Below, one piece after another: positions 55,677 through 64,000 of a DNA stretch of 64,000 bases. Source of the stretch: Planctomycetota bacterium (GTDB lineage Bacteria > Planctomycetota > SZUA-567 > H5-PLA8); the NCBI GenBank assembly GCA_038227875.1, contig JBBRPR010000003.1, positions 160,001 through 224,000 on the forward strand. Direction: 5' to 3'. The first letter of the stretch is position 1; every line of letters begins with the position of its first letter. Both the position numbers and the translations under genes were made by a program. The notes beneath the pieces are model-generated. The model worked only from the letters and a program-made list of their open reading frames with translations. It was not told the origin of the DNA and made no database searches.

Positions 55677-56300
55677 ATGGCCGACGTTCAGCTCCGCACG
55701 TACTGTTTTCTCGACAGCATGCAGCCCCAGTTCGCATCGCTGGAAGCCTCGACGGCTCAGGGCTTTCTCCCCGTCACCGGCCAGGCGGCGCTCTATGTTG
55801 AAGTCGGCCCGGGCATGGCCGTGCAGCGGCTGATGGACATCGCCTGCAAATCCACGGCGGTGATGCCCGGCACGCTGGTGGTCGAGCGCTCCTTTGGGCT
55901 GATGGAAGTCCATCACGACGACCAGGGCGAAGTGCAGCAGGCCGGCGCGGCGGTGCTTGCGGCGCTGGGCTTGAAGGAAATTCAACGCATCAAGCCGCGC
56001 GTGACGACCAGCACGATCATCCGCAAGGTCACCGATTACCACACGATGCTGATCAACCGTTCGCGCCGCGGCAACATGCTGCTCGGCGGCCAGACGCTTT
56101 ACATTTTGGAAGTCGAACCCGCCGCGTACGTGACGCTGGCGGCCAACGAAGCGGAAAAAGCCAGCCACGTCAACCTGCTGGAACTGCGCGGCGTCGGCGC
56201 CTTCGGCCGCTTGTTCCTCGGCGGTGATGAAGCCGACGTCGTCGTCGCCGCGGAAGCCGCGGAAGCGGCGATCAAGGCGGTGACGGGAGCGGAGAAGTGA
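55677..56300 (+). CDS. BMC shell protein, tandem-domain BMC-T (CcmP-like)
   Basis: LRTYCFLDSMQPQ, EVGPG, VVERSFGLME, AANEAEKA and GAFGRL. Confidence 0.93.
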   Translation: MADVQLRTYCFLDSMQPQFASLEASTAQGFLPVTGQAALYVEVGPGMAVQRLMDIACKSTAVMPGTLVVERSFGLMEVHHDDQGEVQQAGAAVLAALGLKEIQRIKPRVTTSTIIRKVTDYHTMLINRSRRGNMLLGGQTLYILEVEPAAYVTLAANEAEKASHVNLLELRGVGAFGRLFLGGDEADVVVAAEAAEAAIKAVTGAEK

Positions 56301-56437: not shown

Positions 56438-56728
56438 ATGGCAGACGCCCTCGGCATGATCGAAACGCGCGGATTCGCGGCGCTGGTGGAAGCCAGCGAT
56501 GCGATGGTCAAGGCGGCGAAGGTCGACTTGATTGGCTTTGAAAAAATTGGCGGCGGCTACGTCACGGCCATCGTGCGCGGCGATGTCGCGGCGGTCAAGG
56601 CGGCGACGGAAGCCGGCGCGCGGGCGGCGGAAGCCATCGGCGAAGTCGTCAGCGTCCACATCATCCCGCGGCCGCACGTCAACGTCGACGAGGTCCTGCC
56701 GCTGGGCCGCAAGTCCGCCAAGAAGTAA
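56438..56728 (+). CDS. BMC shell hexamer BMC-H (EutM/PduA/CcmK family)
   Basis: [32 protein letters not shown] and IPRPH. Confidence 0.97.
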
Positions 56729-56816: not shown

Positions 56817-58448
56817 ATGCAACTGGACGACAGCAAAGTCGCGGAACTGGTCTCACGCGTGGTGGCTCGCTTGAAGCAAAACGGGGCGGCGCCATCGCTG
56901 GCCAAGGCGCCAGCACCGAAAGTCGCACACGCTCCGGCAGCGGAGCACACCGGGAGTACCAACTGGGTGCGTTCCAAACCCGCGCGTGCCGACGATCGGC
57001 CCATCCAGCGCAAGACGGGTTTCTCGTCCTCAGGACCCACTCCCGCGGTCGCGAAAAAAACGGCTGCGCCTGCTTCGACGTCAGCACCCACGGTCGCGAA
57101 GGCTGCTCCGGCCACCGGCGACGGCGTGTATACCGATGTCGATGCCGCCTGCCGCGCGGCCGAACGTTCCTATCAGGAACTCACCAAGCTCGGCTTCAAC
57201 GCGCGCTTCAAACTGATCGAAGTTTTCCGCGCCGCGGCGCTGGCCAACATCGAACGCTGGTCGGTGGAAGCCGCGCGCGAAACCGGCATGGGCCGCGCTG
57301 AGGACAAGCTCAAGAAAAACCGTCTCGTCACGCTGCGCACGCCCGGCCCGGAAATCCTGGTCAACCCCACGACCTTCGCCGGCAGCGACGGCATCACCAG
57401 CATCCGACTCGACCCCTGGGGCGTGATCGCCTCGATCATTCCCTGCACCAATTCCACCGAGACGGTGATCAACAACGGCATCGGAATGCTCGCCGCCGGC
57501 AACGCGGTGGTCTTCAATCCGCACCCGGTCGCGAAGAAAATTTCCTGCGACGCCGTCCGGACGCTCAACCAGGCATTGTCCGCCGCCGGATTTCCCAAGG
57601 AACTGCTCTGCATCCTCGCCGAACCGACCGTCGAGTCGGCAAACGCGCTGATGAAACACCCGCTCACGGGCATGGTCCTGGTCACTGGCGGCGGAGCCGT
57701 CGTCGACGTGGCGATGAAGTGCGGCAAGCGTGCCGTCTGCGCCGGGCCGGGCAACCCGCCCTCGGTGGTCGACGAAACCGCGTGTCTCGACCGCGCCGCC
57801 AAGGCGCTGGTCTCCGGCGCCTCGCTGGACAACAACGTCGTCTGCACCGACGAGAAAGCCGTCATCGCCGTCGCCTCCATCGCCGACGCGCTGAAACAGA
57901 AAATGCTCGCCCGGGATTGCGTCGAAGTCACTGGCGCGAACATCGAAAAGCTGACGAAGATCATCCTGAGCGATCCGGGCAGCCCGACGCATCACGGTAT
58001 GACCAACAAGAAATTCGTCGGCAAGAATCCCTCGGTGATCCTGCGCGAAATCGGCATGAACGTCGACGACCGCGTGCGCCTGGCGATCGTCGACGTCGAG
58101 AAGGATCACCCGTTGATCTGGACCGAGCAGCTGATGCCCGTGCTGCCGATCTGCCGCGTCAAGGACGCCGACGAGGCGATCACCTTCGCCGCCGCCGTCG
58201 AAGGTGGACGCCGCCACACCGCGTCGATCCATTCGCAGCGATTGGACCGCATCACGCGCTTCGCCAACACGCTGAACTGCTCGATCTGCGTCGCCAACGA
58301 TTCCAACTACGCGGGCTTGGGGCTCAACGGCGAGGGCTACACCAGTTTCTCGATCGCCACGCCGACGGGCGAAGGCCTGACGACCGCGCGCACGTTCTGC
58401 CGCGAGCGGCGGCTGGCGGTGTGCGGGGGAGGGCTGGGGAGGGGCTAA
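56817..58448 (+). CDS. BMC-type acylating aldehyde dehydrogenase (EutE/PduP family) with N-terminal encapsulation peptide
   Basis: [43 protein letters not shown] and TPTGEG; N-terminal [12 protein letters not shown]. Confidence 0.93.
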
Positions 58449-58618: not shown

Positions 58619-59152
58619 TCAAGCCACTGCCACCACGACAATGGACGCAATCAGAATGACCAGCGCCACCGACAACTTCACCGCGACGCCGACGGCTCGG
58701 CCGAGTACCGCGCCGAAGGCGACCTGCAGGTTGGGGTCGAGTTTTTTCTGGTGGCGCATTTCGCCGAGGATCGCGCCGACGAAGGTGCCGATGAACGAGG
58801 CGACGACCGAACCGATCACGGGAATTGGCACCAGCCCGCCGAAGAAGGCTCCACCAAAGCCGCCGATCAGCGCGCCCCACGCGGCGGATTTCGAACCGCC
58901 GAATTGCTTCGAACCGAATTGGCCGGCCAGCAGATCGATGCCTTCAGCGACCAGACCGACGAGAAAAAATCCGGCCACCCAGTACCACGGCATCATTTTA
59001 CCGCTAGTGCCCATGCAGAGGATAAACGCGGCGGCGGCCTGCACCAGCGGACCGGGCAGACCGAAGGGCACGATGAAAACGCCGGCGAGCTGCACCAGGA
59101 AGAAGCCGATCAGCGCGAGGCTGCCGGCGAGTACGTGGAGGAAGTTTTGCAT
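58619..59152 (-). CDS. DUF456-family membrane protein
   Basis: PFGLPG, KQFGGSKSAAWGALIGG, PIPVIGS and GAILGE. Confidence 0.8.
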   Translation of the reverse strand: MQNFLHVLAGSLALIGFFLVQLAGVFIVPFGLPGPLVQAAAAFILCMGTSGKMMPWYWVAGFFLVGLVAEGIDLLAGQFGSKQFGGSKSAAWGALIGGFGGAFFGGLVPIPVIGSVVASFIGTFVGAILGEMRHQKKLDPNLQVAFGAVLGRAVGVAVKLSVALVILIASIVVVAVA

Positions 59153-59240: not shown

Positions 59241-60014
59241 ATGTCGCTGACCCAAGTTCCCTGGACCGAACGCGAACTGCGCAAGCAGATCGTCAAAGCG
59301 TGCACCGCTCTGGCGCGCAAGAATCTTGTCGCGGCCACCGATGGCAACGTCTCCGCGCGGCTGGGCTACGACCGGGTGCTGGTGACGCCGTCGAACGTCA
59401 ACAAAGGCGAAGTCGGCGAGCTCGACATTCTGCTCTGCGACATGGACGGCCGCAAAGTCCGCGGGCGCGGCGAGTCGAGCAGCGAAGTCCACGTCCATCT
59501 CGCCGCTTACCGCAACCGCGAAGACATCCACGCCGTGGTTCATGCGCATCCACCGGTCGCCACCGCGTTCACCTTCGCGGGCCTGGCGGAAATCTTTCGC
59601 ACGCCGATCATCCCGGAGGTCGTAGCGCAGATCGGCCCGATTCCGTGCGTACCCTACATTCAGCCCGGCACGCGCGAACTGGCGGAAGCCGTGGGCAAGG
59701 CCTTTCGCGATTGCGACATCGTGATGATGGCTCAGCACGGCGCGGCCACCGGCGCGAAGGATCCGTGGTCGGCCTACCTGCGCATGGAGAAGCTCGAACA
59801 CTTCGCCACCATTGTGAAAACCGCGCGCGAACTGGCCGCCAGCGCCGGGCAGGAGATCCGGACCTTGAGCGACGCGCAGGTCGACGCGCTGCGCGCCGGG
59901 TACGGAAAAGGGAAATTGAAAAGCAGTAGTGTCCCAACGGAAGTAAGCAGCGATGCGATGGTCGAACGAATCGCCGCCGCTGTTCTTGCAAGGATGGGAA
60001 GGGCGGCCGGTTGA
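59241..60014 (+). CDS. Class II aldolase/adducin family (FucA-like) with C-terminal encapsulation peptide
   Basis: DGNVSAR, TPS, SSE..H, VVHAHPP and QHG; C-terminal MVERIAAAVLARM. Confidence 0.92.
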   Translation: MSLTQVPWTERELRKQIVKACTALARKNLVAATDGNVSARLGYDRVLVTPSNVNKGEVGELDILLCDMDGRKVRGRGESSSEVHVHLAAYRNREDIHAVVHAHPPVATAFTFAGLAEIFRTPIIPEVVAQIGPIPCVPYIQPGTRELAEAVGKAFRDCDIVMMAQHGAATGAKDPWSAYLRMEKLEHFATIVKTARELAASAGQEIRTLSDAQVDALRAGYGKGKLKSSSVPTEVSSDAMVERIAAAVLARMGRAAG

Positions 60015-60603: not shown

Positions 60604-60864
60604 ATGATCCTCGGTAAAATCGTCGGCACCGTCACCTCCACGCGTAAACAGGAGACGCTGGGCGGCTTCAAATTCCTGCTGATCCAGAAGCGCATGAAGC
60701 AGGGCGACGGCGATGCCGCGCTGGGCGAAATGTTCGTCGCGGTGGACCTCACCGGCGCGGGCACCGGCGAAGAAGTCATCGTCGCCACCGGCCGCGCCGC
60801 GCGCATCGCGATGGGCAAGGAGGATCTGCCAATTGACGCCGCGGTGATTGGGATTGTGGATTAG
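60604..60864 (+). CDS. BMC vertex pentamer BMC-P (EutN/CcmL family)
   Basis: MILGKIVGTVTSTRK, VAVDLTGAGTGE, GRAAR and PIDAAVIGIVD. Confidence 0.96.
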   Translation: MILGKIVGTVTSTRKQETLGGFKFLLIQKRMKQGDGDAALGEMFVAVDLTGAGTGEEVIVATGRAARIAMGKEDLPIDAAVIGIVD

Positions 60865-61028: not shown

Positions 61029-61631
61029 ATGCATGTCATGACTGAAAACGAGATCCGCAATGTCGCCAGCCGTATCGAAGCGGGTGGGACCTTCACTGTT
61101 CCGCCGGAGACGATCCTGACGCCGCTGGCGCGCGATTACCTCCATGGGCGCGGGATTCAGGTCGTCGATCAGCACGGCGGAAAGTCGCACGCAAAGCCCG
61201 CCGCGTCCGCGCCGTCGTCCGATGACGCGCTGGTCAGCGCCGTCGCCGACGAAGTCAGCCGCATCCTTCGCGAACAGCAGGCGCCGCAGGGAAAGTCAGC
61301 CGCGCCCGCCGATCCCGCAGCCGTGGTGGCGCGCAAGACCATCGCCGGTGAAGGCACGTCCAACCGCGCCGTAGTCTGGGCGATCGGCGGCGACCGGCCG
61401 GGCATTCTCGCCGACGTCGCGGAACTCCTCAGTCGCCACAAGGCCAACATTCTCGAAATCAACCAGACCATCCTCAGCGGCGTCTTCGCCATGGTCGTAA
61501 TCGTGGACCTCAAAGGCGTCACGCTGGCCTTCGCGGAATTCAAGGCGGAGCTCGAAGCGCTCGGCAAGAAGCTGGGTGTGAATCTCTCGGCGCAGCGGGA
61601 TGAGATTTTTCAGTACATGCATCGAGTGTGA
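61029..61631 (+). CDS. ACT-domain protein (UPF0237/COG3830-type) with BMC-type N-terminal extension
   Basis: C-terminal GGDRPGILADV...NILEINQTI...FAM...QRDEIFQYMHRV; N-terminal MTENEI...ILTPLARD; amphipathic LVSAVADEVSRIL. Confidence 0.85.
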   Translation: MHVMTENEIRNVASRIEAGGTFTVPPETILTPLARDYLHGRGIQVVDQHGGKSHAKPAASAPSSDDALVSAVADEVSRILREQQAPQGKSAAPADPAAVVARKTIAGEGTSNRAVVWAIGGDRPGILADVAELLSRHKANILEINQTILSGVFAMVVIVDLKGVTLAFAEFKAELEALGKKLGVNLSAQRDEIFQYMHRV

Positions 61632-61636
61632 CGGGG

Positions 61637-61722
61637 AGTTTTGAAATTTGAGTTTTCAGTTTTGAGTTGTGTGGCGACCGGCGATAGCACAACTCAAAAC
61701 TAAAAACTCACAACTAAAAACT
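61637..61722. repeat. Inverted-repeat element, heptamer GAGTTTT/AAAACTC
   Basis: Arms 61637-61671 and 61688-61722. Confidence 0.85.
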
Positions 61723-61807
61723 GCCCTACCGATCCCGCACTGGGTTTGTGCGGCGTATGGAGTAATCTATTTTCATGCGCGCAGGATGGCGTTTGGGAGC
61801 GGAAACT

Positions 61808-63262
61808 ATGCTTAAAGCACGGCAGGCGTCCTTGATTGTCGGTGAAACCAGCTCCTCGCGGCTGCTGGAAGGAATCGGCGTCAACTGGTGCGACGCGTTT
61901 GGACTCGGCGGCGAGACCGGGATGGGGCAGCGCGGGATGCCGCTCAACACGCCGGCCATTCCGCTGCTCGACAATATTTCCGGCTGGGAGACGGTGCTCG
62001 ATGAGCTGACCGTGCTCAAGGCCGGCTGCATCCGCTTCATGCTGCCGCCCGAAGGCTTCATCACCAAGCGCGGCACGATGGATTTCGACTGCCCGCACTT
62101 TCAGCGCCTCGAGCGCCTGAACGCGTGGGCCGGAGCCAATGGCGCGAGCATCATTCTCGATACGATTCACGTGCCGCATCATCTTCAGGTCAAGGGCGAG
62201 GACGGTCCCGGCGTGGCGCTGAACAACCGCGCGGCGCTCGACCCGACGACCTTCGCCGAGAAATTTGCCGGTCCGCTCTTGGATTACTGTCTTTCCGAGC
62301 GCGGCTGGAACCAGATCCGCTACTACAGCCCGATCAACGAGCCGCTCTACGGCGGCATCTACCACCATCCCAAGGGCGACACCTACCGCGCGTACGCCGG
62401 GCTGATGGCTTCGCTGCGCAAGGAACTGGTCGACCGCGACCTGGTGCCGCAGCGCATTTCGCTGATCGGACCGTCGGCGCCGTCGGTGCAGCAGTGGCCG
62501 GTTCCCGACCTGCACGCGCGCGGGCTGGACATCGACCCGCTGCTCGACGCTTACGATCAGCACGAATATTCCGCACGCTTCGACGGCGATCCGCCGAATT
62601 CGAACGGGGATTCGATTCCGATGAGCGAACTGATCGAGCGGCATCTCACGCCGCACGTCAAGTACGCCGAATCGCGCGGCAAGCCGTTTCTCATCACGGA
62701 AATGAAGCACTCCTATTTTGGCGCCAAGCAGGGCGATCCCAACGGCCCCGCCACGCATGACGCGTTTCTGCTCGACGCCGAATTCGCGATCCGCGCGATC
62801 AACGCCGGTGTGCAGGGGTTGATGCGCTGGAGCTTCCTCAACCCCGGCGACATCGACGGCCACTGGCAGTTTTTGGAAACGGCGGATAATTCGTACCGGC
62901 GCTGCGAGAACACGTTCTACGGTTACGCCACGCTGATCCGCTACGCGCGCCCGCACGCGGATGTGCTGCAGAGTTCCGTGCAGAGCAATTTCTACCCGTG
63001 GCCGCACGTCCACGCCTGCGCGTTGCGCAAGTCGCCGCAGGGCGATGTGACGGTGCTGGTCGTCAACGACCATCCCAGCGAGCAGATCGAACTGAACGTG
63101 AAGCTGCCCGCCTCGCTACGCAAGAAGGTCAACGTGATTCGCAACGACCGCACCTTGAAGCACGCCAAGGTCGACGAAGTGAAACGCGAATTCACCGACC
63201 GCCTCCCGCCGCGCAGCCTGACGGCGTATACGACCTTGGAGTACGATCCGTTGACTCGTTGA
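61808..63262 (+). CDS. Clan GH-A-like glycoside hydrolase (TIM barrel + beta-sandwich), no signal peptide
   Basis: YSPINEP (putative acid/base), PFLITE (putative nucleophile), and C-terminal VTVLVVN...LPPRSLT. Confidence 0.65.
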   Translation: MLKARQASLIVGETSSSRLLEGIGVNWCDAFGLGGETGMGQRGMPLNTPAIPLLDNISGWETVLDELTVLKAGCIRFMLPPEGFITKRGTMDFDCPHFQRLERLNAWAGANGASIILDTIHVPHHLQVKGEDGPGVALNNRAALDPTTFAEKFAGPLLDYCLSERGWNQIRYYSPINEPLYGGIYHHPKGDTYRAYAGLMASLRKELVDRDLVPQRISLIGPSAPSVQQWPVPDLHARGLDIDPLLDAYDQHEYSARFDGDPPNSNGDSIPMSELIERHLTPHVKYAESRGKPFLITEMKHSYFGAKQGDPNGPATHDAFLLDAEFAIRAINAGVQGLMRWSFLNPGDIDGHWQFLETADNSYRRCENTFYGYATLIRYARPHADVLQSSVQSNFYPWPHVHACALRKSPQGDVTVLVVNDHPSEQIELNVKLPASLRKKVNVIRNDRTLKHAKVDEVKREFTDRLPPRSLTAYTTLEYDPLTR

Positions 63263-63272
63263 TAGCTTTGCT

Positions 63273-63359
63273 GGGTAGTTTTTAGTGATGAGTTTTGAGT
63301 TTTGAATTGATCTTCTGCAACACAACTCAAAACTAATAACTCAAAACTCAAAGCTACCC
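63273..63359. repeat. Inverted-repeat element, heptamer GAGTTTT/AAAACTC
   Basis: Arms 63273-63309 and 63323-63359, with GGGTAG...CTACCC termini. Confidence 0.85.
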
Positions 63360-63457: not shown

Positions 63458-64000
63458 ATGTCGCTTTCGTTTGAAGAAATTTTCGAAACCATCCGCATGA
63501 TCGGGATGGAACATCTCGATATTCGCACCACGACGCTGGGCATTTCATTGCTGGATTGCGCCACGGGGTCGGGGGAATCGACGGCGCGCAATGTTTACGA
63601 GAAGGTCGTGCGCATCGGTTCGGCGCTGGTGCCGGCGGCCAAGCAGATTGAGCTGGAACACGGCATCCCGATCATCAACAAGCGCGTCTCGATCACGCCC
63701 GTGGCGCTGCTGGGTGTCGCCGATCCGCTGCCGATCGCGCTGGCGCTCGACCGCGCCGCGACGGAGATCGGCATCGATTTCCTCGGCGGCTACACGGCGC
63801 TGGTCCACAAGGACGTCTCCGCGCCGGACAAGGCGCTGATCGCGTCGCTGCCGGAAGCGCTTTCGCGCACCAACCGCCTCTGCGGGTCGGTCAACGTCGG
63901 CGATTCGCGCACGGGCCTGAACATGGACGCCTGCTTTTCGCTCGGCCGGATGTTGAAGGCCCTGGCCGAAGCGACGCGCGAGAAGGACGGGCTGGGCTGC
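63458..64000 (+). CDS. DUF711/UPF0210 'PFL family' protein, 5' part (runs off window; absent from the ORF track)
   Basis: Manual translation gives MSLSFEEIFETIRMIGMEHLDIRTTTLGISLLDC...GIPIINKRVSITP...LDRAATEIGIDFLGGYTALVHK...SVNVG...GLNMDA. Confidence 0.9.
   Translation, partial: MSLSFEEIFETIRMIGMEHLDIRTTTLGISLLDCATGSGESTARNVYEKVVRIGSALVPAAKQIELEHGIPIINKRVSITPVALLGVADPLPIALALDRAATEIGIDFLGGYTALVHKDVSAPDKALIASLPEALSRTNRLCGSVNVGDSRTGLNMDACFSLGRMLKALAEATREKDGLGC

Follow-up and report, generated by a model that had tools for sequence, protein, structure and literature searches.

A predicted EutQ-type shell anchor on a GlyXS-type ACT protein encoded in a planctomycetal microcompartment locus

We analyzed a stretch of 64,000 nucleotides (contig JBBRPR010000003.1, positions 160,001 to 224,000; here called the window) from a planctomycete with a 9.3-Mb genome that is 88% complete, and focused on a fusion gene at 61029..61631 (+) in a bacterial microcompartment (BMC) locus. 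The gene encodes a protein in which a C-terminal ACT domain of the UPF0237 family, known as GlyXS, is preceded by an extension that begins with a small module homologous to the N-terminus of EutQ. This domain architecture is conserved in homologues and co-occurs strictly with BMC shell genes across the genomes that we compared. We interpret the gene as a microcompartment-adapted GlyXS, whose module would sit on the shell while its ACT domain would hold the DUF711 partner GlyXL, and we put the probability of this reading at about 0.6. In its favor we also count the report that GlyXS and GlyXL act together genetically (PMC13759103).

The translated protein has 200 amino acids (aa), starting with MHVMTENEI and ending with IFQYMHRV, and the open reading frame (ORF) proposed in a first-pass annotation of the window was confirmed as a real gene. 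A word-indexed search found 35 full-length homologues of 187 to 222 aa, all from metagenomes or metagenome-assembled genomes of Planctomycetota and, where named at all, described only as "ACT domain-containing protein." An alignment of 23 of these showed five zones, all on the plus strand: a conserved N-module (residues 1 to 46; 61029..61166), a variable linker rich in Ala, Pro, and Ser (residues 47 to 63; 61167..61217), a conserved amphipathic helix (residues 64 to 83; 61218..61277), a second variable linker rich in Ala and Pro (residues 84 to 112; 61278..61364), and the ACT domain (residues 113 to 200; 61365..61628). The extension of about 110 aa that had been noticed in front of the ACT domain thus has 112 aa, and it is seen in both the alignment and an AlphaFold2 model, which was built from a 50-sequence alignment and has a mean predicted local distance difference test score (pLDDT) of 85.8. 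In the model, the N-module forms a compact beta-alpha-beta-beta-alpha-beta mini-domain with a pLDDT of about 95 (strands at residues 2 to 4, 21 to 23, 28 to 30, and 44 to 46; helices at 6 to 13 and 32 to 40), both linkers are of low confidence (block-mean pLDDT, 52 to 65), and residues 113 to 199 adopt the ACT fold.

The ACT domain belongs to the UPF0237/GlyXS family. Pfam ACT_6 covers residues 115 to 187 (E 3.5e-11), and the NCBIfam equivalog model for UPF0237 ACT proteins, NF001220 (PRK00194), aligns residues 112 to 200 with its positions 2 to 90 of 90 at 92.5 bits, above the curated cut-off of 74. The closest solved relative, 1zpv_A, is a stand-alone ACT protein of 91 aa, in line with the earlier remark that such a domain normally occurs alone as a protein of about 90 aa. 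The fusion protein itself departs from this stand-alone form by its full length and its 112-aa extension; plain UPF0237 ACT forms of 94 to 96 aa are present in genomes without BMCs. The window genome and its three relatives each have one DUF711 gene and one UPF0237 ACT gene, the latter being the fused one.

The N-module shares homology with approximately residues 2 to 49 of EutQ. A profile built from 41 module copies of the window and the fetched loci (A2) matched Escherichia coli EutQ at residues 2 to 49 with 26.9 bits (E 1.7e-10, for this single target), and hhalign gave a probability of 93.4%; a narrower profile (A1) gave 35% (E 4e-4). The likeness of the fusion protein to EutQ in sequence ends at residue ~50. 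The corresponding part of Salmonella EutQ has been characterized: residues 9 to 41 (helices H1/H2) bind the shell, residues 42 to 61 form a flexible linker, residues 62 to 99 (H3/H4) bind the encapsulation peptides of EutC and EutE, and residues 1 to 99 suffice to bring green fluorescent protein into Eut compartments (PMC12487888, 2025), and the first 100 residues were reported to be needed for EutM binding (PMC4827028). Because the N-module is homologous to the H1/H2 region, it would be expected to bind the shell as well. Weaker matches lead to other BMC proteins. The last 42 positions (164 to 205) of NCBIfam TIGR02536, an eut-operon protein, match residues 3 to 46 (E 0.0074), and 20 of the 41 modules match Pfam PF15953 (PDU_like), always at profile positions 113 to 152 of 153 and at 13 to 19 bits, all under the gathering cut-off of 27. 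PF15953 is listed as a PduM homologue in the hidden Markov model (HMM) table of the BMC catalogue (PMC8217296 supplements). It did not match the window's own module, and the fusion protein does not qualify as a full-length PduM member. The N-module has no Pfam model of its own.

When 1.84 billion representative proteins were searched with the A2 profile, 1967 matched at E<=1e-3. A Pfam scan covered 91 of the best 150 matches, those omitted being mostly fragments of less than ~100 aa, and among these 91 the module was found fused to ACT (15), RpiB/LacAB (18), the EutQ cupin (3), class II aldolase (1), cobalamin adenosyltransferase (1), flavoprotein (2, with the module C-terminal), and, in single cases, a trypsin-like peptidase, DUF3830, and MazG_C. 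Many further module proteins have no other Pfam domain, and some have two or three module copies. The module is thus found on proteins from BMC loci and BMC-encoding genomes, and the statement in the first-pass annotation that the N-terminal motif recurs in BMC-associated proteins was borne out by EutQ, PduM-type proteins, RpiB, and a class II aldolase; EutQ-like extensions on other enzymes are also noted in the BMC catalogue supplements (PMC8217296). This distribution shows the N-module to be a portable, putatively EutQ-type BMC tag of 46 aa. In the window genome it occurs only once, on the fusion protein.

Several module proteins outside the ACT family were also seen. P0037, P0040, P0071, P0107, and P0159 have 160 to 255 aa with two or three EutQ-type modules and no other Pfam domain, and are possible multivalent shell-binding scaffolds. 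In one planctomycetal genome (G210), a 228-aa protein without a Pfam match carries the module mid-chain (L072:1324-2007), with shell genes within a few kb or less; in another (G278), a module-only protein of 109 aa, also without a Pfam match, adjoins a tandem BMC gene (L071:1495-1821). A search of PDB sequences with the module profile returned only KRas and an ELYS repeat, which we judged to be chance matches. Fold searches with the module model gave no hit at Z>=5 with VIA-align wide (best Z, 4.3) and none at E<=1e-3 with Foldseek against pdb.

Evidence for a connection with microcompartments came from a sample of 401 Planctomycetota genomes. DUF711 was found in 54 of them, a UPF0237-type ACT (E<=1e-12) in 51, and BMC-H, as a background, in 141; a few of the 51 have frames of ~300 aa and no DUF711 and represent another family. 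From the 40 ACT regions that were fetched, the ACT gene was located by tblastn in 35, while L087 to L091, where tblastn with the window ACT domain missed it, were judged from open frames of 103 to 115 aa and a negative module search. The N-module is present on 33 of the 35 located genes, whose products then have 155 to 253 aa (31 of the modules score above 0 bits with a close-clade profile, and those of L094 and L099 were accepted from the alignment); the two plain ACTs, of 94 and 96 aa, are from BMC-negative genomes. With four close-clade genomes and G253 added to these 33, all 38 module-ACT genomes have BMC-H, compared with none of the 8 genomes that have a plain ACT and DUF711. The N-module was sought in all 8 of the latter and found nowhere, and 7 of them are 98 to 99% complete. 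The co-occurrence of module-ACT and BMC spans at least eleven families. In this sample, extended ACT proteins were thus seen only in BMC-encoding genomes, a point that the first-pass annotation had proposed to check, and the link between DUF711 and the BMC that had been drawn from the window alone is now well supported by genome comparison. Taken together, comparative genomics and homology to a characterized shell-binding region strongly support the view that the extended ACT protein is linked to microcompartments.

Gene order showed the same association. Shell genes lie within the fetched stretch in 24 of the 33 module-ACT loci, usually in the order BMC-H, aldehyde dehydrogenase (AldDH), BMC-H, BMC-T-like, EutN, EutN, (tandem BMC), ACT, DUF711, and DUF711 directly follows the ACT gene in 29 of these 33 loci, all from clades other than that of the window. 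In plain-ACT metagenome loci, DUF711 is directly downstream in 37/40 and a shell gene is in the flanks in 0/40; for three metagenome ACT matches (L027, L029, and L057), the match begins upstream of the ACT domain. Close relatives of the fusion protein were found in only three species genomes, whose locus reads BMC-T-like, BMC-H, AldDH, aldolase, HTH_17, (Memo), EutN, ACT fusion. The fusion gene comes right after EutN in all five close-clade loci with sufficient upstream DNA, i.e., the window, the loci of the three species genomes (L005 to L007), and a metagenome contig (L022).

The conserved helix proved to be a more local feature. AlphaFold2 modeled residues 64 to 83 as a lone helix (block-mean pLDDT, 74 to 87), and residues 68 to 82 have the highest helical hydrophobic moment of the protein (0.72, versus a mean of 0.25 and a standard deviation of 0.13), so that the amphipathic character ascribed to it earlier stands. 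It had also been said to match the peptides on the AldDH and aldolase encoded in the same locus, and this held, weakly, for the aldolase, whose C-terminal peptide has its best match to the family profile exactly at residues 60 to 83 (hhalign E 1.1e-4, 56%), but not for the AldDH, whose peptide did not match (profile-profile probability, 1.3%). Among 53,153 six-frame ORFs of the window genome, the helix profile found only itself. The motif is limited to the family-level clade of the window and is missing in other clades, whose linkers have a Pro/Asp-rich motif in one family and are long and Cys/His-containing in another. It is in the helix-bearing clade, too, that AldDH and aldolase have classical encapsulation peptides, and the loci of the other clades resemble the MIC3 type of the BMC catalogue, with an AldDH that has a long C-terminal extension; the text of the catalogue supplements reports no encapsulation peptides for MIC3 (PMC8217296). 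The helix is therefore clade-specific and internal; it is the folded N-module, a predicted EutQ-type shell anchor, that represents the general BMC-linked feature. Encapsulation peptides have been described as amphipathic alpha-helices of ~18 residues, N- or C-terminal, with a poorly conserved linker to the functional domain (PMC4594438). Helix 64-83 agrees in length and amphipathicity and has variable linkers on both sides, but it is internal, with the N-module on one side and the ACT domain on the other. It could be either an encapsulation-type peptide in an internal position or a binder of cargo peptides like EutQ H3/H4.

The presumed partner, a DUF711/UPF0210 (GlyXL-type) gene, begins 1.8 kb downstream on the same strand, behind a 495-aa gene and two hairpins. 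Its 5' part is at 63458..64000 (+; Pfam DUF711, E 2.2e-169; start set by alignment), and the full gene, which runs to window-equivalent 64807, encodes 449 aa. DUF711 proteins have 445 to 462 aa and no extra segment in genomes with and without a BMC alike, which makes piggy-backing via the ACT partner a reasonable idea. R23, R76, E334, and R398 are invariant in 37 aligned DUF711 proteins, and their numbers are close to those of the residues predicted to form a glyoxylate pocket in the Bifidobacterium breve protein (R22, R75, E339, and R403; PMC13759103), a likeness by numbering alone. A recent study (PLoS Genet 2026, PMC13759103) named DUF711/UPF0210 GlyXL and the UPF0237 ACT protein GlyXS, and reported that both are needed for glycine-free growth of B. 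breve and Methanococcus maripaludis and that the pair from B. breve can rescue a glyA mutant of E. coli under aerobic conditions; glyoxylate formation is the function proposed there for the two proteins. That study mentions neither microcompartments nor Planctomycetes. DUF711 is grouped by ECOD with ribonucleotide reductases and glycyl-radical enzymes, though without the radical glycine (PMC4390871).

From these data, a mechanism can be proposed in which the 46-aa N-module would bind the shell, by homology to the H1/H2 shell-binding region of Salmonella EutQ. In the window clade, the helix would join the cargo condensate that the encapsulation peptides on aldolase and AldDH form or, alternatively, would bind these peptides as EutQ H3/H4 does. 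The ACT domain would hold GlyXL, and the extension-less DUF711 enzyme would thereby be recruited to the metabolosome by piggy-backing. This suggests that the GlyXS-GlyXL pair works at or inside the microcompartment. The window genome also has glyA. Glyoxylate is an aldehyde, and metabolosomes serve to confine aldehydes, so that a catabolic, compartment-linked use of the pair fits, with a module-tagged GlyXS near an acylating AldDH.

Several observations weigh against a microcompartment-adapted GlyXS. The genomes compared are interrelated, and a single family contributes 6 of the 8 plain-ACT genomes, so that the contrast of 38/38 versus 0/8, though strong, overstates independence. In 3 of the 4 window-clade genomes, DUF711 does not adjoin the fusion gene but is separated from it by 128 kb or 526 kb or located on a different contig. 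The BMC-positive genomes G301 and G407, which belong to the window's family, have no UPF0237 ACT over the cut-off, and the N-module, sought in G301, was not found there, which means that the shell does not need the fusion protein. The metagenome contigs L020, L021, and L023 carry the fusion gene with no BMC gene in the 2.9 to 9 kb upstream. Finally, no clear relative of the N-module among solved structures confirmed a binding role, and the clade restriction of the helix and its missing likeness to the AldDH peptide count on the same side. The BMC-free flanks available for those three contigs are what would be expected if the extension were unrelated to microcompartments and the adjacency to EutN were chance or a lineage-specific gene order. 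We regard this as very improbable given the co-occurrence across families, the homology to the EutQ shell-binding region, and the fusion of the same module to other BMC enzymes.

The remoteness of DUF711 in most window-clade genomes, where the fusion gene stays in the BMC locus, bears on another explanation. The fusion protein could be mainly an organizer of shell and cargo, the local counterpart of EutQ or PduM, with its N-module on the shell, its helix on the aldolase and AldDH peptides, an ACT domain that serves only for dimerization and perhaps ligand sensing, and a DUF711 enzyme that stays cytosolic. Such a role would suit the sole carrier of a EutQ-type module in the genome, and the arrangement of module, flexible linker, helix, and dimeric domain copies EutQ 1-99 plus the cupin dimer (PMC12487888); the helix is also present where the cargo has encapsulation peptides and missing in the MIC3-like loci. 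On the other hand, DUF711 directly follows the gene in most loci of other clades, the ACT domain still matches UPF0237 well and exceeds the curated cut-off, each of the four window-clade genomes has exactly one ACT and one DUF711, as expected of a working pair, and shell genes are present in G301, where the module was sought and not found, and in G407, with no UPF0237 ACT over the cut-off. We therefore consider a mainly organizing role unlikely, although it is the strongest competitor of a GlyXL-holding GlyXS.

GlyXS is termed a regulatory component in Table 1 of PMC13759103, and ACT domains commonly bind amino acids, so that the fusion protein might also be a metabolite-sensing regulator docked at the shell, to which the module would bring it, with the ACT domain binding glycine or another small molecule and modulating a shell pore or the AldDH. 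There is no evidence for a target other than GlyXL, however, and the ACT-DUF711 operon is strongly conserved in plain and module loci alike, which makes this account improbable.

A bolder extension of our reading starts from the BMC phosphotransacylase (PTAC, PF06130), which was found in 0 of 14 module-ACT genomes (G000, G069, G157, G331, G149, G074, G058, G392, G243, G185, G233, G253, G340, and G259) versus 9 of 11 genomes that have a BMC but no module-ACT (G046, G176, G193, G120, G175, G006, G273, G399, G333, G301, and G407). Where present, PF06130 adjoins BMC-H; the two exceptions, G301 and G407, are of the window's own family. These counts support the tentative idea that GlyXL-GlyXS is the true cargo of widespread PTAC-less planctomycetal metabolosomes, and maybe the missing signature enzyme that generates the aldehyde. 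In such a system, glyoxylate would be the sequestered aldehyde, and the ACT subunit would have evolved a EutQ-type anchor to bring the enzyme in. The BMC catalogue supplements name no signature enzyme for MIC3 loci in their text (PMC8217296). A simpler version, in which DUF711 merely replaces PTAC, was weakened by G301 and G407, which have BMC genes and neither PTAC nor a UPF0237 ACT over the cut-off.

The BMC locus of the window contains, in the order 5' to 3' and on the same strand, genes for an AraC regulator, a 207-aa BMC-T-like protein, BMC-H, AldDH, class II aldolase, HTH_17, and EutN, followed by the fusion gene. The BMC-T-like protein (55677..56300, +) has a weak C-terminal BMC-domain match (E 4e-4), and counterparts of ~205 aa with 44 to 73% identity occupy the equivalent position in all related BMC loci (L005 to L007 and 24 phylum loci); a divergent or permuted shell protein is one possibility. 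The BMC-H gene (56438..56728, +) is the sole strong BMC-H found in the genome, and the BMC-P (EutN) vertex gene directly upstream of the fusion gene (60604..60864, +) is the sole EutN found. Between these lie the genes for the AldDH with an N-terminal encapsulation peptide (56817..58448, +) and the class II aldolase with a C-terminal one (59241..60014, +), and between these two, on the opposite strand, a gene for a DUF456 membrane protein (58619-59152, -). A Memo-like gene stands between HTH_17 and EutN in BMC loci of a sister genus (L006:4184-5158 and L007:8634-9524) and is left as a remnant in L005:8931-9422; it is missing from the window locus. In L023:901-8978, in which no BMC gene was found in 9 kb, the fused ACT gene directly follows a sugar-acid catabolic cluster of GH4, two mannitol-dehydrogenase-like proteins, an FGGY kinase, SDR, an MR/MLE dehydratase, and a DHDPS-family aldolase.

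A palindromic hairpin (61632..61725, +; -39.6 kcal/mol, z -7.6) that belongs to a repeat family stands just 3' of the fusion-gene stop, and a second copy at 63291-63355 lies upstream of DUF711; a 14-mer of the palindrome has 9 matches in the window versus 0.32 expected. The two copies bracket the 495-aa ORF (61775-63262, +), which is absent from two close relatives (L025 and L026) in which DUF711 follows ~540 bp after the ACT gene, suggesting that the 495-aa gene is an insertion. This ORF has no Pfam match and a weak NCBIfam match to the arabinofuranosidase ArfA (E 0.0017). It is a real gene, since L020 and L024 have copies of 76% and 71% identity on the 3' side of the fused ACT gene, and it possibly encodes a glycoside hydrolase. 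A scan for promoters and terminators gave a single terminator-like site, inside a coding region.

If correct, our interpretation would join two results that have so far been unconnected, the role of the EutQ N-terminus in coupling shell and cargo (2025) and the formation of glyoxylate proposed for DUF711/ACT (2026). The literature collection searched contained no paper joining "DUF711" with "microcompartment" and none combining "microcompartment," "ACT domain," and "Planctomycetes." What is new is a predicted EutQ-type anchor on a new cargo-associated subunit, which offers a concrete candidate enzyme for planctomycetal metabolosomes without a recognized signature enzyme, and residues 1 to 46 or 1 to 112 would be a compact candidate tag for loading cargo into engineered shells. 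Should GlyXL-GlyXS prove to be the true cargo, this would give a function to an orphan organelle type (MIC3-like) and independent support for DUF711 making or handling an aldehyde.

Compared with known systems, the fusion protein resembles EutQ 1-99. Each of the two comes from a BMC locus, they share homology over the first ~46 residues, and the order of a small N-module, a flexible linker, a helical segment, and a dimerizing C-terminal domain is shared. It differs from EutQ in having a UPF0237 ACT in place of the cupin and a single helix where EutQ has H3/H4, and beyond residue ~50 the two sequences do not match. The PduM-type proteins (PF15953) and the TIGR02536 eut protein are likewise BMC-associated, and their last ~40 positions match the N-module; however, this is a short stretch only, below the gathering score, and the module is C-terminal there and N-terminal here. 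The same module is N-terminal on RpiB proteins (18 among the 91 scanned), although the extension of the SPU RPI has been described as a helix-type encapsulation peptide plus linker (PMC11585597), whereas the module models here as a small alpha/beta domain. With classical encapsulation peptides (PMC4594438), helix 64-83 shares an amphipathic helix of ~18 to 20 aa, poorly conserved linkers rich in small residues, absence from homologues in genomes without BMCs, and a weak profile similarity to the aldolase C-terminal peptide; it is unlike them in being internal, found in one clade only, and without similarity to the AldDH peptide.

In the BMC catalogue supplements (PMC8217296), ACT proteins are represented by an HMM for ACI/MIC3 loci (HMM01842act_1_acimic3) and by a FRAG4 protein whose ACT is C-terminal and whose N-domain is unknown. 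By these descriptions, ACT proteins recur in BMC loci, planctomycetal ones included, as does the fusion protein, but the catalogue text covered here gives them no link to DUF711, EutQ, or GlyXS; PF05167 and DUF711 are absent from seven catalogue supplement files searched as text, and the locus diagrams, which are pictures, may show DUF711 beside ACT. The fusion protein shares with GlyXS an ACT domain above the PRK00194 cut-off, the best PDB match to 1zpv_A, and the pairing with a single DUF711 gene in the genome. It differs from GlyXS in having 200 aa instead of ~90 aa and a predicted BMC anchor, in being encoded in a BMC locus with the 495-aa gene between it and DUF711, and in a genome that also has glyA, so that a glycine-supply role is not required of it.

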